Shown: piece after piece, positions 4,436 to 48,979 of the stretch
Layout of the letters: each line of letters opens with the position of its first letter
Position numbering within the stretch: the stretch's first letter is position 1
NCBI GenBank assembly: GCA_963648895.1
Contig: CAVJGK010000002.1
Location: 1-51,956 of the forward strand
DNA from: Lachnospiraceae bacterium
Lineage (GTDB): Bacteria; Bacillota_I; Bacilli_A; RFN20; CAG-449
Reading direction: 5' to 3'
Length of the DNA: 51,956 nt
The notes under the pieces: generated by a model
What the model was told of the DNA's origin: nothing
The model's database searches: none
What the model saw: the letters and a program-made list of their open reading frames with translations, nothing else
Program-made: the position numbers and the translations under genes

Positions 4436-7291
4436 CTATTTTCTTTTATTCATTCTTTCTAAATCTCTTTTTAAGATTTTCTTTAAATATTGGCCAGTAT
4501 AGGAATCTTCAACTTGTGAAACTTCTTCAGGTGTACCAAGTGCGATAACTTGACCGCCTTTTTCTCCACCTTCATAGCCCATATCTATTATATAGTCTGC
4601 ACATTTAATTACATCTAAATTATGTTCAATAATTAAAACTGAATTACCTGTAGAAACTAAAGTATATAATACATTTAATAATTTTTTAACATCATCGATG
4701 TGTAAACCGGTTGTTGGTTCATCAAGGATATATAAAGTAGAACCAGTTGATTTACGTTGTAATTCATAAGCAAGTTTTACTCTTTGAGCTTCTCCACCAC
4801 TTAATGTAGTAGAAGATTGACCCAGTTTAACATATCCTAATCCAACATCAACTAAAGTTTTTACTTTGCGGTAAATTGAAGGAATATTTTCAAAGAAGTT
4901 CATTGCTTCTTCACTAGTCATATCCAATACATCTGCGATAGATTTACCTTTATATGTGATGTTCAATGTTTCTTGGTTATAACGTTTACCATTACATTCT
5001 TCACATTTTACATAAACATCTGGCATGAAGTTCATAGAAATTCTAGTAACTCCATCACCTTCACATTTTTCACATCTTCCACCTTTAACATTAAATGAGA
5101 ATCTTGATTTATCATAACCTTTCGCTCTTGCATCAATGGTGCTAGCAAATAAGTCTCTAATATCATCAAATACTCCAATATATGTGGCGGGATTACTTCT
5201 TGGACTTCTTCCAATTGGTTCTTGAGATACATTGATAACTTTATCAATATTTTCAATTCCAGTAATGGATGATACTTTACCAGGTTTAATTTTGGTTTTA
5301 TTTAATTTAACTTGTAATGTTTTATATAAAGTTTCATTGATTAATGATGATTTACCACTACCTGAAACACCAGTTACGCAGACAAACATTCCTAAAGGAA
5401 TATCCACATCAACATTTTTTAAGTTATTAACTTCTGCACCTCTAATTTTAATAAACTTCTTGTTACCTTTACCTCGATAAATATTATAAGGAATAAATTC
5501 TTCTCCTTTTAAATATTTACCAGTTAAAGAGTTAGGATTATCCATAACTTCTTTAGGTGTTCCTTGAGCGACTATTTCTCCTCCATGAATACCAGCACCT
5601 GGACCAATATCAACTAAATAATCCGCGGCTAACATTGTATCTTCATCATGTTCGACAACAATTAAAGTATTACCTAAATCTCTCATCGCTTTTAAAGTGG
5701 TAATCAATTTATCATTATCTCTTTGATGTAAACCAATACTTGGTTCATCAAGGACATATAATACTCCGGATAATCTAGAACCAATTTGAGTCGCAAGTCT
5801 AATTCTTTGAGCTTCGCCACCGCTTAAAGTCATGGCAGTTCTAGACAATGTTAAATAATCTAAACCAACATCAACTAAGAAAGAAACACGGTTATAGATT
5901 TCTTTAATAACTAAATTACCGATGTTATTTTGTTCAGTAGTTAAATGTGATGGTAAATCTTTAATAAATTCGAGTAACTTACCTAATGATAAATTACATA
6001 ATTCATAGATGTTTAAACCATTTATTTTAACCGCTAAAACCTTGTCATTTAATCTAGCACCATTACATTTATTACAAATGGTATCTTCCATAAATGTTTG
6101 ATAATAACCACGCATAAATTCAGAAGTAGTTGTTAAATACATTCTATCAATGCGGTTTTTAACACCTTCAAAACCAACTCTAGTAGTTTCATTACCAGAG
6201 CTAGATTTTAATTTCATTTTGATAGGTTCAAGAGAACCAAACATACAAATCTTTTTTTGTGAATTTAATAAATTGCGATATGGAATATCTCTTGGGATAT
6301 TATAATAATCACAGGTATAAGCAAATTCTTGCCATTCTAAGTTTTGTGTTTCAGCGATGTTTTTATAATAAGCAATCGCCCCTTGATTTAACGTTAATTC
6401 ATCATTAGTTATTAATAAATCAGGATTACATTCTCTTTTAATACCTAGTCCATTACATTCAGGACATGCTCCTAATGGAGCGTTAAAAGAAAATAATCTT
6501 GGTTCTAATGGAGGGACGGAGAATCCGCAGTATTTACATGCTTGATGTTCGGAGAATAATTCTTCTTTATCTCCCATTTTCACTAATACAAAGCCATTAC
6601 CAATATCTAAAGCAGTTTCTAATGATTCATATAATCTTTCATCACTATCTTCTTTTAAAGCTAGTCTATCTACTACAATATCAATTGTATGTCTTGCATT
6701 TTTTTCTAATGGTTTTAATTCAGAGAATCTAACAATTTCTCCATGATCAATTCTTACTCTTTCAAAACCTCTTTTTTGGAATTTATCAAGAGTATCTTTA
6801 TGTGTACCTTTTTCATTATTAACAATAGGTGCGAATATAAAAACCTTTGTTCCTAATTCATTATTTTTAATAATATCAATCATTTGTTTGATTGTGAATT
6901 TAACAATTGGTTCATTATGAGTAGGACAATAAGCTACCCCAACACGTGAATATAATAATCTTAAATAATCATAAATTTCTGTAACAGTACCAACTGTTGA
7001 ACGAGGGTTATGAGATGTAGTTTTTTGATCAATCGCAATAGCAGGAGATAATCCTTCAATAGAATCAACATCAGGTTTTTCTGGATTACCTAAAAATTGT
7101 CTAGCATAACTAGACAAGGATTCAATATATCTTCTTTGACCTTCCGAGAAAATAGTATCAAAAGCTAAAGTAGATTTACCACTACCTGATACACCCGTAA
7201 AAACAACTAATTTATCTTTAGGAATACTAATATCAATATTCTTTAAATTATTTTCTCTAGCACCTTTAACTATAATTTGATCTTTTGCCAT
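4436..7291 (-). CDS. uvrA: excinuclease ABC subunit A (951 aa)
   Basis: ORF track; two ABC modules (GVSGSGKST, GVSGSGKSS; LSGGEAQR twice) and CxxC zinc-finger pairs. Confidence 0.95.
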   Translation of the reverse strand: MAKDQIIVKGARENNLKNIDISIPKDKLVVFTGVSGSGKSTLAFDTIFSEGQRRYIESLSSYARQFLGNPEKPDVDSIEGLSPAIAIDQKTTSHNPRSTVGTVTEIYDYLRLLYSRVGVAYCPTHNEPIVKFTIKQMIDIIKNNELGTKVFIFAPIVNNEKGTHKDTLDKFQKRGFERVRIDHGEIVRFSELKPLEKNARHTIDIVVDRLALKEDSDERLYESLETALDIGNGFVLVKMGDKEELFSEHQACKYCGFSVPPLEPRLFSFNAPLGACPECNGLGIKRECNPDLLITNDELTLNQGAIAYYKNIAETQNLEWQEFAYTCDYYNIPRDIPYRNLLNSQKKICMFGSLEPIKMKLKSSSGNETTRVGFEGVKNRIDRMYLTTTSEFMRGYYQTFMEDTICNKCNGARLNDKVLAVKINGLNIYELCNLSLGKLLEFIKDLPSHLTTEQNNIGNLVIKEIYNRVSFLVDVGLDYLTLSRTAMTLSGGEAQRIRLATQIGSRLSGVLYVLDEPSIGLHQRDNDKLITTLKAMRDLGNTLIVVEHDEDTMLAADYLVDIGPGAGIHGGEIVAQGTPKEVMDNPNSLTGKYLKGEEFIPYNIYRGKGNKKFIKIRGAEVNNLKNVDVDIPLGMFVCVTGVSGSGKSSLINETLYKTLQVKLNKTKIKPGKVSSITGIENIDKVINVSQEPIGRSPRSNPATYIGVFDDIRDLFASTIDARAKGYDKSRFSFNVKGGRCEKCEGDGVTRISMNFMPDVYVKCEECNGKRYNQETLNITYKGKSIADVLDMTSEEAMNFFENIPSIYRKVKTLVDVGLGYVKLGQSSTTLSGGEAQRVKLAYELQRKSTGSTLYILDEPTTGLHIDDVKKLLNVLYTLVSTGNSVLIIEHNLDVIKCADYIIDMGYEGGEKGGQVIALGTPEEVSQVEDSYTGQYLKKILKRDLERMNKRK

Positions 7292-7926: not shown

Positions 7927-9834
7927 TTATTTAGCTGTGTCTGCAACTAAATAAATAGTAATTGAATATAATGAGTTATTATATGTAGATACATTAGCGA
8001 GTAATGCACTTTGAGAATTAAATTTCCATGATGCTACTTTTGATTTATTATTTGAAGTAGATGTTTCTTGTGTATAATCAACTTTATTTTCATCTTTAAT
8101 TTCTGTTCCAGTATATCCTGTTAAATTATAGAAATTATAATGATCAACAACTACTTTATAAACTTTATAACCTGTAGGAGCTTCAATTAAAATTTTTCCT
8201 CCTTCAGAAGCTTTATTATTAACAGAAAATTCTTTATAAGATTCTTGTAATACGCAGCCTGTCAATTTCATTGTTGCTTTTACTGTAGTTTCACCAGCTG
8301 TACAATCAACTTCAATTTTATCAACATTACCTACTGATTCAGTTAATCCAGCAGCTTTCATATCAGTATAATCTAATGCTTTAGAAACTAATGTAGTAGC
8401 AAGTTCTGTTTCAAATGTAAGTGTTTTTGTTGCAGAAGCTTCGCCTTTTGTAGCAGTTACAGTAACTACATTTGTATCTTTTGTTGTAGTTGGAGTAACA
8501 GTAATAGTACCTTTAGAAGCATCAACTGTTGCAGTATTACCACTTGTTAATTCTAATGTAACAGTTACATCGCTATAGGATGATGTAATAGTATATGTTG
8601 CATCATTATCTAAACTAAATTTTGTACCACCTAATTTAGTTGTGATAGTTTGTAAAACAGCATTTACTTTTGCCGCATCAGTCATATCATTTTCAGTTAC
8701 AGTAATTGCATCTGCATCTTTTGCAGTTGCATAGCAAGCATAAGCATTTGAATAAACAGTAGTAATACCAACAAAATCAAATTGTTTACCTTTTGTTACT
8801 GCTTCATTATATTTTGCAACAATATCATCTGTCTTAGAAATATAATTTTTGTTATTGTAGAAATAGAATTCAGTTGTACCTGTACCAACTGTGAAATAAT
8901 AATAATTGCCATCAATTCTTGTTGGAGAGCAACCTTTTAATGTAATATAAGCATTTTGATATTTTGAATCAACTGTTTCTGTAGAATTTTTAGTTGCTTT
9001 TTCCCAATCACTTGTTGCATCAATAGGTGCAATGTCTGTAACTGTTGGAGTATCTTCATCAATTACATAAGAACCACCTGAAGCAAATTCTTCTTGACCA
9101 TTATAGTCACTTCTTGTACCTACATAGATAATTGTATCACCGACTTTTGCGCGTGTTTGGCCTTCTTCAACAGTTGGTTTATAACCAAAATAAGAATAGC
9201 CTTCAGAATCTCTAAATACAACAGTTGTAGTATCTGCATATGCTGAGATACATGTTACAACACCTTTAAGAATATAAGTTTTATTCTTTGTGTTTTGTGC
9301 CCATGTTTCATGTGTATCAAATGTTAATACTGGAACAATAACATTGATTGTTTCATGTCTACCTGAAGTTAATTCTGAGAAAGTTTTTGTAACTCCTTCT
9401 AAAGTAAATGATGGAGTTAATTTAGCTTTGATTTCTTCTTTAACGACATTTTTTGTCCAACCTGTAATTGAAACTTTACCGTCTTTGTAAGAAATAACAC
9501 CTTCTGTACCTTCAGTTTGTTGTAAAGTCCAAGTAACAGCGACATCATCACTACCAATTGCAACTGATGTTAATACTGTGAAATCTGCAGTTGCTTGAGC
9601 ATTATTTTTTGATTTAGTAGCGGACCATAAAAAATCTGCAGCATCTGTTAACACAGATAAGATATCTTCATTTGTTCTACCAGTTGAAGTAGAAGATGGA
9701 GATGTTTCACTTGAACTTGTTGTTTGGTTATTGCTAGAAGGACTAGAAGCACTTGATGAAGTACCTGCACATGCAGCTGCACTAAATGTTAAAATTAATG
9801 CAGATGACAATACTAATAATTTTTTAAATTTCAT
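7927..9834 (-). CDS. surface lipoprotein with Ser-rich tether and OB-fold-like segments (635 aa)
   Basis: ORF track; signal peptide plus lipobox (LTFSAAAC); Ser/Thr-rich linker; segments such as YILKGVVTCISAYADTTTVVFRDSEGYSY resemble OB-fold nucleic-acid-binding modules (inference); GGGGA RBS. Confidence 0.7.
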   Translation of the reverse strand: MKFKKLLVLSSALILTFSAAACAGTSSSASSPSSNNQTTSSSETSPSSTSTGRTNEDILSVLTDAADFLWSATKSKNNAQATADFTVLTSVAIGSDDVAVTWTLQQTEGTEGVISYKDGKVSITGWTKNVVKEEIKAKLTPSFTLEGVTKTFSELTSGRHETINVIVPVLTFDTHETWAQNTKNKTYILKGVVTCISAYADTTTVVFRDSEGYSYFGYKPTVEEGQTRAKVGDTIIYVGTRSDYNGQEEFASGGSYVIDEDTPTVTDIAPIDATSDWEKATKNSTETVDSKYQNAYITLKGCSPTRIDGNYYYFTVGTGTTEFYFYNNKNYISKTDDIVAKYNEAVTKGKQFDFVGITTVYSNAYACYATAKDADAITVTENDMTDAAKVNAVLQTITTKLGGTKFSLDNDATYTITSSYSDVTVTLELTSGNTATVDASKGTITVTPTTTKDTNVVTVTATKGEASATKTLTFETELATTLVSKALDYTDMKAAGLTESVGNVDKIEVDCTAGETTVKATMKLTGCVLQESYKEFSVNNKASEGGKILIEAPTGYKVYKVVVDHYNFYNLTGYTGTEIKDENKVDYTQETSTSNNKSKVASWKFNSQSALLANVSTYNNSLYSITIYLVADTAK

Positions 9835-9855
9835 TTTAACTTTTCCCCTTTTTAA

Positions 9856-11709
9856 TTAATTTTTAAATGTGAAATTTTTATATGAAGCCACTCTTAATTG
9901 ATAACTACCATTGTAGTAATCAACAACCCCTTTAGCGTCAAATGTTTTGCCTACAAAAGCATCAGAAGTGACTTTACTACCGTCAGAATTGTAAAGAATA
10001 CTTGTTCTAATTGTGAACGTTTTTCCACTTGAATCGGTACATGTAAGAGATAAAGCACCAGCACTTGTTCCATCTTGAGTTGTATAAGCTGAAGTACAAG
10101 TAACATCATTCATTTGACAATATGAACTTGTTAATGCATCCATATATGAAGTTCCAGCATAATCATCACTCTTAGTTGTATTGCTAAAATCATTACCAGT
10201 GATGATAGTTGGATCATAAGAACAATTTTCTTCGACTAAACGAGTGTTCTTTTCATATTCTGGATCCATTGCCATGTATGATAAACCAGATACTTGGTAT
10301 GTACCAGCTGTATCATATTTTTGGAAACTACCACAGAATGATAATTTGTTTCCACGAACAATCATACTTTGACCTTTGAAATTATAGCCAAGATATACTG
10401 TCATACCCCAATTGACGCCTGTTTCTTCATCATATTCTTGAACATAAATAGTTTCAGCATCGATTGTAGTAATAATACCTTCAAAACGAACTGTTACGCC
10501 TAGATAAGATGTTTCAGAACTTTCTAATAAAGAAGTTCTTAATTCTTTAATAGTAACGCTTAAGAAATCACCATAATAGAAATTTTTATCTCTAAACATA
10601 TAGTTTAGGTTGTTTGAAGAATCAATTGTGACATATTCATTTTCACCAGATTCAGTTTCTCTATAAATATTGAAATATCCAGTTTTTGTTGAATCTTTTG
10701 CGATTTTGAAATCTTGTGCGTTATTAATGTCAGTAGTTACACCACCAGCATAATTATTTAAAGCACCTGTGTAATAATATACTTTATTATCAATTTCCAT
10801 ACCTAAATGATATGTCTTATTATTACCATATTCTGAAGTAATATTTGATTGAGAAGTAATCTTACTTCCACTTTCAGTGTAGATATTTACTAAATGTAAA
10901 TTATCTGTTTTATCTGCACTTAAATATGAAATAATAGATGAATCAACATAGTTTCCAAGTACAGTTCCTTTTGAATCGCATAATTGTTTTGAAGCAATTC
11001 TCCAGCTAGCTGCAGCTTTAGAGAAAACATATAATTCATGTTCATTTGCTTGTGAATATGCTTTTTGCATAATTTCACCATAGCAAGTAGAACCAATTGA
11101 TTTAGCGTTAGCTAAACCAGCTTGTAAAATTTCTAAGTTTAAATTCTTATATTCAGTTGCCCCTTTTGCTTTATACCAAACAAAGCCTAAGAATCTTGTA
11201 CCAGTTGAGTCTAAATTCCAGTTTCCATCATTTGATTCAACGATAACTGATTCAGCATTAGATAATCTTTCTTTGTTAAATAAAGAAGCTGTTTTACCCC
11301 ATTCTTGGATTTGTCCTGTAGATTCTGGAGTATCAATACCTAAATATCTAACTTTTAAAACGCCATCTTCATAAGTAGAACTTGATGAAGGGAATTCGGA
11401 TTTCTTATCGCTTGAGACAGTAAAATGAGATGTATCACCATCAATTAAAGATTTAATTTGTGATGATGTAAATTCCATATATTTTCTACCGGAATTAGTA
11501 TCGAATTTTAATTGTGATGCATAATCGATAAATTCACTAACTTCTTTTTCTGCATATGGAGTTTTCTTTAATTCATCAGCAGAAGAACTATCGCTACTAG
11601 GTGATGTATCTGATGATGAGGATGAAGAAGAAGTATTTCCACATCCAACAACTCCACAAATTAATAATAAGGAAGTTAAACTTACTGTTAATAATTTTTT
11701 CATTTTCAT
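9856..11709 (-). CDS. staphylococcal-nuclease (SNase/thermonuclease) domain lipoprotein with C-terminal OB-fold-like domains (617 aa)
   Basis: ORF track; lipobox LICGVVGC; SNase blocks IDGDT, VRYLGIDTPES, WGKTASLFNKERL, GRFLGFVW, LNLEILQAGLA; C-terminal GKTFDAKGVVDYYNGSYQLRV resembles an OB fold. Confidence 0.85.
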   Translation of the reverse strand: MKMKKLLTVSLTSLLLICGVVGCGNTSSSSSSSDTSPSSDSSSADELKKTPYAEKEVSEFIDYASQLKFDTNSGRKYMEFTSSQIKSLIDGDTSHFTVSSDKKSEFPSSSSTYEDGVLKVRYLGIDTPESTGQIQEWGKTASLFNKERLSNAESVIVESNDGNWNLDSTGTRFLGFVWYKAKGATEYKNLNLEILQAGLANAKSIGSTCYGEIMQKAYSQANEHELYVFSKAAASWRIASKQLCDSKGTVLGNYVDSSIISYLSADKTDNLHLVNIYTESGSKITSQSNITSEYGNNKTYHLGMEIDNKVYYYTGALNNYAGGVTTDINNAQDFKIAKDSTKTGYFNIYRETESGENEYVTIDSSNNLNYMFRDKNFYYGDFLSVTIKELRTSLLESSETSYLGVTVRFEGIITTIDAETIYVQEYDEETGVNWGMTVYLGYNFKGQSMIVRGNKLSFCGSFQKYDTAGTYQVSGLSYMAMDPEYEKNTRLVEENCSYDPTIITGNDFSNTTKSDDYAGTSYMDALTSSYCQMNDVTCTSAYTTQDGTSAGALSLTCTDSSGKTFTIRTSILYNSDGSKVTSDAFVGKTFDAKGVVDYYNGSYQLRVASYKNFTFKN

Positions 11710-16743: not shown

Positions 16744-17973
16744 TTATTTATTCTTTTTTGCCATTTTTGCAGCAATCTTATCTTTTAAAGTCATCTTCTT
16801 TGAGGTTTCTTCAGTTGTAACTTCTTCAGAAGTTTCTTCAACTTCGACTTCTTCTACTACAGCAGGTTTTACTACTGGAGTTTCGCCATTTGAATAAATT
16901 CTTTCTTCTGATTCTCTATTGAATAAGAATACCTTATGAGGTTTTAATGTGAAATGAACATATCCTTCTTCATCTGGAGTAACAACTGTTGTTGCATCAA
17001 TAATGCTTCTTACAATTGCTGCTTCACTTCCTGGATGAGTGGAAACAATTGAACTATCTCTACCCATGACTTCAACAGATTTAATCTTTGATTTAAATGG
17101 TCCTTTTGGATCTAGAACAAATCCTTCAGGTCTAATACCCATATAAATTTCTTGATCTGGTGCGTCTTTTTCAAATACTGGAGTATCATCACCATCTAAG
17201 TAAACTTTTCCATCTTTTAATACACCTTTAAATACGTTGATTGGAGGTGTACCTAAGAATTTAGCAACGAATAAGTTAACTGGTGAATCATAAACTGTTT
17301 GAGGTACATCAACTTGTTGAATAACACCTTTTTTCATAACAACGATTAAGTCTGAAATACTCATAGCTTCTTCTTGGTCGTGAGTAACGAATACTGTTGT
17401 AACGTTTGTATCACGTTGAATTCTTCTAATTTCTTCACGAGTTTGAAGTCTTAATCTAGCGTCAAGGTTTGATAAAGGTTCATCAAGTAATAAGACGTTT
17501 GGATTTTTAACAATCGCTCTAGCAATAGCGACACGTTGTTGTTGACCACCTGATAATTCAGAAGGTTTTCTTTCAAGTAAATCATCAATTTGAACAAGTC
17601 TAGCTGCTTCAACAACTCTGTTCATAATTTCTGTTTTTGACATCTTTTGATTTTGTAAAGGGAACATAATGTTTTGCTTTACTGTCATGTGTGGATATAA
17701 AGCATAGTTTTGGAAAACTAAACCTACACCACGTTTTTCTGGTGGAAGATTTGTTACATCTTCTTCACCGAAATAGATGTGACCTGAACTTGGTTTTTGT
17801 AAACCACTCAACATATAAAGTGTTGTTGATTTACCACAACCAGAAGGACCAAGTAAGCCAATTAATTTGCCATCTGGAATTTCGTAGTTGAAATCATTGA
17901 CAGCGATAACTTCTGAGCCGTCTTTCTTTCTACTTGGAAATATTTTTGTTAAATGTTCAATTCTAACTTTCAT
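16744..17973 (-). CDS. ABC transporter ATP-binding protein, MalK/UgpC/MsmX-like (409 aa)
   Basis: ORF track; Walker A GPSGCGKST, FQNYALYPHMTV, signature LSGGQQQRVAIARA, Walker B LLLDEP; acidic C-terminal tail. Confidence 0.9.
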   Translation of the reverse strand: MKVRIEHLTKIFPSRKKDGSEVIAVNDFNYEIPDGKLIGLLGPSGCGKSTTLYMLSGLQKPSSGHIYFGEEDVTNLPPEKRGVGLVFQNYALYPHMTVKQNIMFPLQNQKMSKTEIMNRVVEAARLVQIDDLLERKPSELSGGQQQRVAIARAIVKNPNVLLLDEPLSNLDARLRLQTREEIRRIQRDTNVTTVFVTHDQEEAMSISDLIVVMKKGVIQQVDVPQTVYDSPVNLFVAKFLGTPPINVFKGVLKDGKVYLDGDDTPVFEKDAPDQEIYMGIRPEGFVLDPKGPFKSKIKSVEVMGRDSSIVSTHPGSEAAIVRSIIDATTVVTPDEEGYVHFTLKPHKVFLFNRESEERIYSNGETPVVKPAVVEEVEVEETSEEVTTEETSKKMTLKDKIAAKMAKKNK

Positions 17974-40818: not shown

Positions 40819-41556
40819 TTAATTATTTAAGAAACGTTTTAAGAATTCTTTAGTTCTTTCACTCTTAGGATTATTAAATACTTCATCAGAAGTGCCCATT
40901 TCTTCAATGACACCTTTATCCATAAAAACAACTTTAGTCGCGATTTCTTTTGCAAAAGCCATTTCGTGAGTAACAATAACCATGGTGATATGTTCTTTCG
41001 CGAGAGATTTAATAACATCTAAAACTTCTCCAACCATTTCAGGATCTAATGCTGAAGTTGGTTCATCAAATAAGATGACATCTGGATTCATACATAAGCT
41101 ACGAGCGATCGCCACTCTTTGTTTTTGTCCACCAGATATTTGATTGACGCGGTAAGAAGCTCTATCTAGCATTCCAACTCTTTCAAGATTTGATAAAGCA
41201 ATTTTTGTCGCTTCTTCTTTGCTTCTATGAAGAACTTTAGTTTGAGCCAAAATACAATTATCTAAAACACTATAATTGTTAAAAAGATTGAATTGTTGGA
41301 AAACCATCGACATTCTTTCTCTTATTTTGTTGATGTTAACATTTTTGTTGTTATTAATCTTTTCACCTTCAAAATAGATTTCTCCACCTGTAGGTACTTC
41401 AAGTAAATTTAAACATCTAAGTAAGGTAGATTTACCGCTGCCAGAACTACCAATAATACAAACAATTTCACCTTGTTCAATTGATAAATCAATGCCTTTT
41501 AATACTTGTAAAGAACCAAATTGTTTTTGTAAATTAACAATATCAATAACTGCCAT
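40819..41556 (-). CDS. polar amino-acid ABC transporter ATP-binding protein (GlnQ/ArtP-like)
   Basis: ORF track; [36 protein letters not shown]. Confidence 0.93.
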
Positions 41557-48164: not shown

Positions 48165-48220
48165 GTGTTTTTTTAAATTTTTTTCATTTTTTGAACACCC
48201 GGGTCAGTTATCTTATATAG

Positions 48221-48724
48221 TTACTTCTCATTTTCGTATTTTATATACTTGTAATAAACATTTTCTAATAATTTTAAATTGCAGCATCTATCTTTAATTC
48301 TAAGATCATCGCTAGTCAATTTGTCATTATCAGTTAAAATCATTTTTCTTAATTTAGCAGCAATATCCTTAATTTTGTTTTCTTCTTCATTAATTGCTTT
48401 ATATTGATTTTGAAGCAAACGTTTATATTTATCATCTTTTATGTTGTTTATATCAATCAAAATCAAACATTCATCTAATACCGGTATCATATTATTAAAA
48501 TTAATTACGCCTAGTTCTCCATTTTTTATTTTACGGAAATCTTTACTATTTTTCATTTTTAAGTGTTTTAGTTTAGGCGAACTAAATGGAGCATAGTATT
48601 TAATACCATCAATTTCTAATACTACTCCTAGATATGGTCTTGTTTCCTTTTTGTTTTCACAAATTTTTAAATCAAATTTTTTCAAGTACTTTATGTACTC
48701 ATCCTTTATGCAATAAAATCTCAT
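48221..48724 (-). CDS. toxN: ToxN/AbiQ-family type III toxin (sequence-specific endoribonuclease), 167 aa
   Basis: ORF track; blocks MRFYCIKDEYIKYLKKFD, LGVVLEIDGIKYYAPFSSPK, LGVINFNNMIPV and CCNLKLLENVY parallel Pectobacterium ToxN as I recall it; AAGGAG RBS 6 nt upstream; preceded by tandem RNA repeats and a terminator. Confidence 0.85.
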   Translation of the reverse strand: MRFYCIKDEYIKYLKKFDLKICENKKETRPYLGVVLEIDGIKYYAPFSSPKLKHLKMKNSKDFRKIKNGELGVINFNNMIPVLDECLILIDINNIKDDKYKRLLQNQYKAINEEENKIKDIAAKLRKMILTDNDKLTSDDLRIKDRCCNLKLLENVYYKYIKYENEK

Positions 48725-48743
48725 TTTTGTCTCCTTACAATTT

Positions 48744-48769
48744 AAAAGGGGAAGCTTTTTCGCTCCCCC
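48744..48769 (-). terminator. intrinsic (attenuating) terminator between the antitoxin repeats and toxN
   Basis: minus strand GGGGAGC-GAAAAA-GCTTCCCC (one bulged U) followed by only TTTT, then the toxN RBS. Confidence 0.65.
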
Positions 48770-48774
48770 AGATT

Positions 48775-48885
48775 AGGTTCTCTCTTTATGGTGGAGACTC
48801 ACCGCTTTTTTAGGTTCTCTCTTTGTGGTGGAGACTCACCGCTTTTTTAGGTTCTCTCTTTATGGTGGAGACTCACCGCTTTTCG
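48775..48885 (-). ncRNA. toxI: ToxI-like antitoxin RNA: three head-to-tail 37-nt repeats
   Basis: copies at 48775-48811, 48812-48848 and 48849-48885. Unit on the transcribed strand is AAAAAAGCGGUGAGUCUCCACCAUAAAGAGAGAACCU. Differences are one point change in the middle copy and the last 2 nt of the promoter-proximal copy. The 37-nt period is not a multiple of 3. Confidence 0.8.
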
Positions 48886-48908
48886 AAAAAGTTTCCTTTT
48901 CCAACTTC

Positions 48909-48937
48909 ATAATATCATTTATTAACATAAAGTGCAA
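48909..48937 (-). promoter_or_regulatory. promoter of the toxI-toxN transcript (TTGCAC-17-TATTAT)
   Basis: minus strand TTGCAC (48937-48932), 17-nt spacer, TATTAT (48914-48909), about 20 nt upstream of the first repeat. Confidence 0.6.
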
Positions 48938-48955
48938 CAAACTTTTAATGTAAGC

Positions 48956-48979
48956 AAAAAGGGAGCATTAGAACTCCCC
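48956..48979 (-). terminator. rho-independent terminator after the hydrolase gene
   Basis: minus strand GGGAG-TTCTAATG-CTCCC followed by TTTTT. Confidence 0.7.

Follow-up and report, generated by a model that had tools for sequence, protein, structure and literature searches.

What is encoded at positions 48221-48937 of contig CAVJGK010000002.1, where a minus-strand open reading frame (ORF) of 167 amino acids (aa) follows three directly abutting repeats of 37 nucleotides (nt) each? The stretch that we analyzed, referred to as the window throughout, comprises 51,956 nt of DNA from a Lachnospiraceae bacterium (assembly GCA_963648895.1), a low-GC gut bacterium (32% GC). An earlier note, made from the sequence alone, had proposed a type III toxin-antitoxin module of the ToxIN/AbiQ kind, that is, a protein toxin with an RNA antitoxin. 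Toxin family, predicted fold, architecture and RNA all support this proposal, and we assign a probability of about 85% to the reading that the locus is an intact but ordinary chromosomal module of the ToxIN family, which was described between 2009 and 2012. It adds a new intact ToxIN module from a low-GC gut bacterium; the understanding of type III systems is unchanged by it, and a specialist will not be surprised.

The locus follows the order promoter, tandem repeats, terminator and toxin gene, which is the same in every homologous locus examined, and each of the elements described beforehand was observed on the minus strand at, or at most 2 nt away from, the place assigned to it:

48909..48937, minus strand: putative sigma-70 promoter with -35 TTGCAC at 48937-48932, a 17-nt spacer ending TGA, and -10 TATTAT at 48914-48909
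48883..48904, minus strand: 5' leader stem-loop UUGGAAAAG-GAAA-CUUUUUCGA, directly before the first repeat and overlapping its start (-7.5 kcal/mol, z = -2.2)
48843..48879, minus strand: antitoxin repeat unit 1, 37 nt, GC GGUG AG UCUC CACC AUAAAGA GAGA ACCUAAAAAA
48806..48842, minus strand: antitoxin repeat unit 2, 37 nt, with one U-to-C change in loop 3
48769..48805, minus strand: antitoxin repeat unit 3, whose 3' tail ACCUAAUCUG has lost the A-tract and runs into the terminator stem
48843-48848 (between units 1 and 2) and 48806-48811, minus strand: A6 tracts, ToxN processing sites predicted from sequence
48744..48769, minus strand: predicted intrinsic terminator/attenuator between array and toxN, with an 8-base-pair (bp) stem (one G.U pair), a 6-nt loop and a U4 tail
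48731..48736, minus strand: ribosome-binding site AAGGAG, 6 nt 5' of the ATG
48221..48724, minus strand: toxN, encoding a 167-aa protein of the ToxN/AbiQ family, a predicted endoribonuclease toxin, with predicted catalytic residues R29, S48, S49 and K51
48213..48220, minus strand: right-hand cassette junction, where homology with toxIN-free relatives restarts at TAAGATAACTGA, about 5 nt past the toxN stop codon

Tandem Repeats Finder returned the direct repeats with a period of 37, 3.0 copies and 97% matches (48773-48883), as had been described, and, if up to one mismatch is allowed, a 28-nt core of this unit is present at three places in the 52-kb window versus 0.00 expected from shuffles. 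The end of the array lies 44 nt from the ATG of toxN (48724). Between array and toxN, a terminator scan recovered the GC hairpin with the U4 tail that the earlier note had described: GGGGGAGC-GAAAAA-GCTTCCCC followed by TTTT at 48769-48744, folding at -16.3 kcal/mol (z = -3.6 versus shuffles). An equivalent hairpin with a T-run is found in all homologous loci examined; in the window, the short U tail suggests that the terminator is leaky. Hairpins in the leader position, differing in sequence, also occur in L006-L015, L028 and L040, and the leader stem-loop may serve to stabilize the 5' end. There is no credible protein antitoxin, as had been claimed: 5' of toxN, the sense strand contains a single ORF of 20 aa or more, a 26-aa TTG ORF that starts 5' of the -10 element and overlaps the promoter.

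The toxin assignment is carried by sequence profiles, structural comparison and the active site. The 167-aa protein matches PF13958 (ToxN_toxin) with E = 3.4e-49 and 167.5 bits compared to a cut-off of 25, covering residues 1-160 of 167 and the entire profile (positions 1-159 of 159). Its E value with the AbiQ model of PADLOC is 2.6e-41; the profile search that had been suggested as a check was hence in favor of the proposal. Matches to PDB sequences comprise ToxN from E. coli (7d8o, 1.6e-22), Pectobacterium (2xd0, 1.4e-21) and B. thuringiensis (4ato, 2.2e-14) as well as AbiQ (4glk, 1.8e-8). All four sequence blocks of Pectobacterium ToxN that the earlier note had quoted proved correct, and BLASTP against ToxN of plasmid pECA1039 gave 35% identity (E = 5e-30). 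An AlphaFold2 model based on 28 homologues reached a predicted local distance difference test score (pLDDT) of 91.9 and a predicted template modeling score (pTM) of 0.87. Foldseek with this model returned 2xd0, 4ato, 7d8o and 4glk as the best four matches at a template modeling score (TM) of 0.75-0.80 and a probability of 1.00, and the protein is confidently predicted to adopt the ToxN fold, in which a twisted beta core is combined with a long kinked helix. Type II toxins of the MazF/CcdB type appeared in the remote tail of the Foldseek matches (TM about 0.3, E > 0.06); as this similarity is only remote and an antitoxin ORF is absent, a type II MazF/Kid/CcdB identity was rejected.

The published active site of ToxN consists of K33, T52, S53 and K55 plus Y29 (PMC5086642; PMC8860590). 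In our alignment, T52-S53-P54-K55 of ToxN corresponds to S48-S49-P50-K51 of the window protein and K33 to R29; Y29 falls in a segment that is missing from the window protein. Serine at the first catalytic position is the state found in AbiQ, and arginine in place of K33 is known from other ToxN clusters (PMC5086642; PMC8860590). Judged from the alignment, the catalytic motif is retained, both substitutions being present in active relatives. Moreover, the window protein carries the family residue at 44 of 44 invariant columns of a 28-sequence alignment in which it is included; because it does so despite an identity of only 55-64% to the other 27 proteins, the toxin is not visibly decayed. The expectation that an ORF-based annotation would report a lone hypothetical protein did not hold, since NCBI already names relatives "type III toxin-antitoxin system ToxN/AbiQ family toxin", matching the Pfam family name; only the RNA is missed. 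An NCBIfam profile search yielded a sub-threshold TenpIN match only, and this library seems to be without a ToxN model.

The repeats were compared with those of ToxN relatives, for which twelve genome loci were available (L004-L015, from Agathobacter, Blautia, Oliverpabstia, Dorea, [Ruminococcus] torques ATCC 27756 and others), and in 11 of them 2.9-3.2 copies of a 36-38-nt unit lie 5' of toxN, with a GC hairpin and T-run behind them. The remaining one, L011 from Firmicutes bacterium CAG:646, encodes a full-length ToxN of 162 aa with a single recognizable unit about 60 nt upstream, which is below the minimum of 1.9 copies reported for the ToxIN family (PMC3401426). In these toxIN loci of gut Lachnospiraceae, as in the window, about 3 copies of the 37-nt unit (consensus GGTGAGTCTCCACCATAAAGAGAGAACCTAAAAAAGC) and the GC hairpin with its T-run are followed by a ribosome-binding site, and the toxin has about 163-167 aa. 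The window unit is identical at 37 of 37 positions to the consensus unit of several of the arrays, whereas the toxins behind these identical units show only 58-62% protein identity (55-62% across the Lachnospiraceae loci) and their genes 65-68% DNA identity to toxN of the window. Consequently, the RNA is constrained far more strongly than the protein it is paired with, and the combination of a perfectly conserved RNA with an about 60% identical protein offers a handle on the determinants of RNA-toxin specificity. The GC content is 43% in the antitoxin unit and 24-32% in the toxN genes, with 24% in the window versus 29-32% in the Lachnospiraceae loci. Further differences concern the first unit, which is a compensated variant in the Lachnospiraceae arrays whereas all three units are near-identical in the window, the promoter and leader sequences, and the third A-tract, which the window has lost. 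By sequence, the window and the Lachnospiraceae loci belong to one RNA class and one toxin subfamily. As the R. torques ATCC 27756 locus is catalogued in Blower et al. 2012 (PMC3401426), the comparison of the 37-nt unit with known type III antitoxin RNAs that had been suggested leads to an already catalogued RNA. The dimensions of the locus (37 nt, 3.0 copies, 167 aa) nearly equal the toxIN family means of a 38.1-nt repeat, 2.8 copies and a 168-aa toxin, the family ranges being 31-62 nt and about 2-6 copies (PMC3401426).

A degenerate pattern of the unit was found in 119 stretches of metagenome contigs, the named records being nearly all human-gut assemblies, and 80 of these stretches were fetched as loci. 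A ToxN-like ORF, intact or broken, lies just downstream in matching orientation in 65 of the 80, the full-length proteins being 57-62% identical to ToxN of the window. The other 15 divide into eight at a contig edge, two with a toxN truncated at residue 48 (L084, L103) and five toxin-less arrays without toxN by tblastn (L065, L069, L080, L100, L116); L081, which counts among the 65 on a weak match, is likewise without toxN by tblastn. The window locus is an intact member of this common gut RNA class with a divergent toxin. The closest toxins (62-66% identity) are accompanied by the same RNA family in unrelated housekeeping contexts. Plasmid relatives amount to 226 records, all below 60% identity and named ToxN/AbiQ family toxin, and further relatives are located on a few phages and in IMG/VR contigs. 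A degenerate repeat pattern gave no match in IMG/VR, for which reason we see no evidence of phages carrying the window RNA as a decoy.

Each repeat unit is predicted to fold as an H-type pseudoknot of two 4-bp helices: In unit 1, stem 1 (S1) pairs GGUG at 48877-48874 with CACC at 48867-48864, and stem 2 (S2) pairs UCUC at 48871-48868 with GAGA at 48856-48853. Across 30 distinct units, 94.6% of the cells pair, a percentage that is inflated because the alignment was fitted by hand to the proposed pseudoknot; slid registers reach only 42-66%. Both partners vary in six of the eight pairs, and covariation scores 0.45 versus 0.26 in shuffles, with 0 of 500 shuffles as high. Hand alignment was chosen because plain MAFFT misplaced the 3' strand of helix 2 and because a free-register search was ambiguous (best 7.6 of 8 pairs versus 5.9 for shuffles); the units were padded with N to hold their register in MAFFT, and three L038 units were left out because MAFFT shifted them. 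Alignment fitting would less easily produce the double changes (UA to CG, GC to AU), and compensatory changes occur both in variant units within arrays and in 13 IMG/VR loci. With its short loops, the window RNA belongs by sequence to "Group I" of Blower et al. 2012 (PMC3401426). In the IMG/VR locus L029, loop 3 of the pseudoknot is extended by a 12-nt hairpin, CGACATGAGTCG, in the first array unit; Blower et al. 2012 (PMC3401426) describe a similar exception in Clostridium sp. HGF2.

The covariation also bears on the idea that the repeats are not an RNA antitoxin at all but, for example, terminators of the plus strand, a short CRISPR-like array or a repeat that encodes protein. Each unit does read as a short hairpin with a T-run on the plus strand, which the terminator scan flagged, and short plus-strand ORFs cross the repeats. 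The frequent G.U pairs in the covariation, however, are compatible with the minus (sense) strand only, the units abut and leave no spacers, there is no plus-strand gene nearby (the three plus-strand ORFs among 53 are far from the locus), and a ToxN-like ORF follows the repeat in the same orientation in those 65 of 80 metagenome loci. We regard such an origin of the repeats as extremely improbable and retain the antitoxin reading. A search of the repeat region against Rfam 15 gave no relevant match at E <= 10, which carries no weight because the archetypal ToxI of pECA1039, used as a control, was also missed at E <= 1. The antitoxin RNA is invisible to both ORF callers and Rfam, and the class is effectively unannotated in standard pipelines.

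How does the module compare with characterized systems? The archetype from Pectobacterium atrosepticum, ToxIN of pECA1039 (2xd0/2xdd), has the same gene order and the same toxin fold (TM 0.77). Its ToxI unit, A GGUG AU UUGC UACC UUUAAGU GCAG CUAGAAAUUC, was verified at 100% in the plasmid; it shares with the window unit the spacing (4 bp in S1, 4 bp in S2, loops of 2, 0 and 7 nt, and a tail of about 10 nt) and the sequence of S1, in which GGUG is joined by UACC in pECA1039 or by CACC in the window. The two systems differ in that pECA1039 carries a 36-nt unit in 5.5 copies on a plasmid whereas the window carries a 37-nt unit in 3.0 copies on a chromosome, in the cleavage position (AA/AU in pECA1039 ToxI, an A6 tract in the window), in the catalytic pair K33/T52 versus R29/S48, and in W57 and F88, which hold the RNA in pECA1039 ToxN and correspond to K53 and N78 in the window. 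In the RefSeq record of pECA1039 (NC_011767.1; L041 1172-1393), a coding sequence annotated as "hypothetical protein" is placed over the ToxI repeats. ToxIN of B. thuringiensis pAW63 (4ato) is the best structural match (TM 0.80) and shares an RPY motif before strand 2, while its sequence similarity is lower (E = 2e-14) and its repeat sequence different. AbiQ/antiQ of Lactococcus lactis (4glk), a proven abortive-infection system (PMC5086642), belongs to the same Pfam family and has the serine at the catalytic position that is threonine in ToxN; it is the most distant solved family member (E = 1.8e-8). CptIN and TenpIN follow the same logic of promoter, repeats, terminator and toxin, and their toxins are remote structural relatives. 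Membership in either family was rejected: CptN (4rmo) reaches a TM of only 0.43 (E = 4.8e-3, Foldseek), the TenpIN model NF047358 gives the window protein 21.8 bits versus a cut-off of 90, and the repeats are longer, with 40-57 nt in CptIN/TenpIN (PMC3401426) and 40-48 nt in CptIN versus 37 nt in the window.

These relatives also indicate how the window RNA would be processed. The published cleavage specificities are AA/AU for Pectobacterium ToxN, A/AAAA for B. thuringiensis ToxN and A/AAA for AbiQ (PMC5086642). At the position of the ToxI cut, the window reads UAAAAAAGC; by position, the cut is predicted to fall within the A6 tract, about 6 nt past S2, and the A6 tracts at two unit boundaries fit the A/AAAA specificity of the pAW63 enzyme as well as A/AAA. 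Drawing on characterized relatives for transcription, read-through, cleavage site, toxicity and neutralization by RNA, we propose the following mechanism: From one minus-strand promoter, a transcript would be made that contains the hairpin leader, three 37-nt repeats, a weak terminator and toxN. The terminator would stop most transcripts, which would keep the antitoxin RNA in excess over the toxin. ToxN, acting as a sequence-specific endoribonuclease, would cut the repeat precursor wherever an A-rich tract separates two units and stay bound to the processed, pseudoknot-folded units in a closed, inactive protein-RNA complex. If RNA synthesis fell or turnover rose, for example because a phage shuts off host transcription, free ToxN would appear and cleave A-rich cellular and phage RNAs, whereupon growth would stop and the infection abort.

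Apart from the hand-fitted alignment, three features weigh against an intact module. One is the promoter: TTGCAC-17-TATTAT is indeed present at 48937-48909, but it is weak, with a consensus score of 8 out of 12 (3 out of 6 for the -35 hexamer), which is why it is absent from the promoter-scan listing. It is nevertheless plausible as a promoter because it has an extended -10 TG at 48917-48916 and because homologous loci have a strong promoter in the corresponding relative position; moreover, it is the sole plausible candidate between the terminator of the upstream gene (48979-48960) and the first repeat. By analogy with these loci, a single promoter 5' of the repeats could plausibly drive both components. 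A further feature is the number of processing sites: Full A6 tracts exist only at 48848-48843 and 48811-48806, unit 1 is preceded by CGAAAAG, and only unit 2 has A6 on both sides and could thus be released with two processed ends. Unit 1 would retain the leader hairpin and unit 3 the terminator, which leaves fewer fully releasable units (at most one) than in the Lachnospiraceae arrays. Finally, metagenome relatives are often toxin-less or have a broken toxN, whereas the window locus shows no lesion. Many toxN genes of the R. torques type are broken next to intact arrays (L058, L064, L071, L097, L117, L013 and others): The first five share one frameshift in an A-run after ...KDEYINYLKK, and toxN of L013 stops in the same place, after codon 15. 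Different frameshifts, an internal deletion or truncations affect L042/L070, L055/L072/L106, L043 and L084/L103. Several of the broken loci lie on low-coverage contigs, so that homopolymer errors are possible.

The weak promoter match, the lost A-tract of the third repeat and the decay of many relatives would all suit an inactive relic whose ORF and repeats look intact but are unexpressed or non-toxic. We consider such a relic very unlikely, given that the ORF is full-length, carries all family-invariant residues and has a confident ToxN fold. In addition, the repeats are 97% identical to one another and identical to those of distant loci, which implies ongoing selection, and three other samples contain the identical protein. 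We therefore keep to an intact ToxIN module.

In these three samples (Logan contigs L001-L003), the identical ToxN is always followed by rpsL. Each of the three contigs begins 78-85 nt 5' of the toxN ATG, close to where the repeat array ends, pointing to a break of the assembly at the repeats. Short-read assemblies seem to be interrupted by tandem repeats, and such arrays would remain hidden in metagenomes. Ten further contigs encode an identical RpsL and lack toxN; here the gene order is serine dehydratase, pyrophosphatase, alpha/beta hydrolase, rpsL, rpsG and fusA, with rpsL only about 236 nt away from the hydrolase gene. In the alignment, the homology of these toxIN-free contigs to the window breaks in the region of the hydrolase stop codon and restarts at the right-hand junction listed above. 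The absence of toxIN from these contigs together with the breaks in homology therefore identifies the module as an insertion between the hydrolase gene and the rpsL promoter. This empty site was found via the identical RpsL, the exact upstream hydrolase protein not being on record. The insertion has a size of roughly 725-800 bp and consists of promoter, array, terminator and toxN only; the alignment with the empty sites shows no recombinase and no visible flanking repeats. Its left junction can be located no more finely than 48940-48975 because the hydrolase terminator region varies among relatives. As homology restarts about 5 nt past the stop codon, toxN has no terminator of its own, and read-through would enter a highly conserved rpsL promoter/leader block. 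Comparison of filled and empty sites thus indicates that the whole system moves as a roughly 750-bp cassette without a recombinase or its own terminator.

The block entered in this way contains a conserved inverted repeat, ACCCGGGTGTTCAA / TTGAAACACCCGGT, on the minus strand at 48204-48191 and 48080-48067. It brackets the rpsL promoter TTGTCA-17-TATACT (48164-48136) with an A-rich upstream block and also, in the rpsL leader, a small hairpin plus T-run (48110-48098). Relatives that lack toxIN conserve the whole block at 93%, with a G.U-compatible change in the 3' arm in L022. Since the inverted repeat is also present in empty sites, it was ruled out as a cassette end and assigned to the rpsL region; it could act either as a pair of protein-binding sites or as a stem at which read-through transcripts are processed.

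Because of this bare insertion of about 750 bp among housekeeping genes, outside any defense island, we wondered whether the same ToxN/ToxI machine might have a role other than phage defense, either as a selfish, addictive cassette or in stress-induced growth arrest, and would leave its host unprotected from phages. Related cassettes in unrelated housekeeping contexts favor such a role. So do the frequent relatives that keep the RNA array with an inactivated toxin or none, a pattern expected of addiction modules, and the lack of any other specific defense gene in the 38 window ORFs scanned with PADLOC, for which the claim that the locus is the sole defense-type element of the window holds. On the other hand, Pectobacterium ToxIN and Lactococcus AbiQ are characterized as abortive-infection systems (PMC5086642; PMC8860590), and relatives are located on plasmids and on predicted phages and prophages. 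Taken together, a role outside defense seems unlikely to us, and by analogy with the characterized systems an anti-phage function of the window module is slightly favored.

The toxin-less arrays could represent stand-alone antitoxins or what is left once the toxin has been lost. Most of them have three units and a terminator, L116 has one unit, and at least three different contexts are represented; a promoter is visible in L069, L080, L100 and L081, and L065 starts at the contig edge. On the predicted viral contig L040 (IMG/VR), two different 34-nt arrays stand in tandem 5' of one toxN (2590-2688 and 2819-2925); since a terminator-like hairpin of its own and then a promoter lie behind the first array, this one is a toxin-less extra array. 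A wider, tentative idea, which may be correct but which we regard as doubtful, is that one invariant 37-nt ToxI RNA serves as a shared, cross-neutralizing antitoxin for at least four ToxN lineages (55-70% identity) in gut Lachnospiraceae and the low-GC host of the window, that toxin-less arrays are stand-alone "immunity" or anti-addiction genes, and that the cassette is co-transcribed into the str operon, as would be expected of a cassette that lacks a terminator and lies directly against the rpsL promoter block. If this were true, toxin-less arrays with promoter and terminator would act against incoming toxIN cassettes and would not be mere debris.

Two PADLOC models, mad3 and mad8, also matched window proteins: uvrA (4436-7291, E = 3.5e-100) and ABC ATPases (40819-41556, 16744-17973). 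A second defense system was rejected, as these matches represent UvrA and ABC-transporter ATPases, and both models are a likely source of false defense-system calls. Between uvrA and an ABC sugar-transporter cluster, large adjacent ORFs occupy 7927-11709 on the minus strand; one of 635 aa has no Pfam or PADLOC match, and one of 617 aa has a staphylococcal-nuclease domain only. Gene orientation across the 52 kb, the ribosomal protein cluster included, is strongly one-directional: The minus strand carries 50 of the 53 ORFs with 120 aa or more, and the three plus-strand ORFs are contained within genes of the minus strand.

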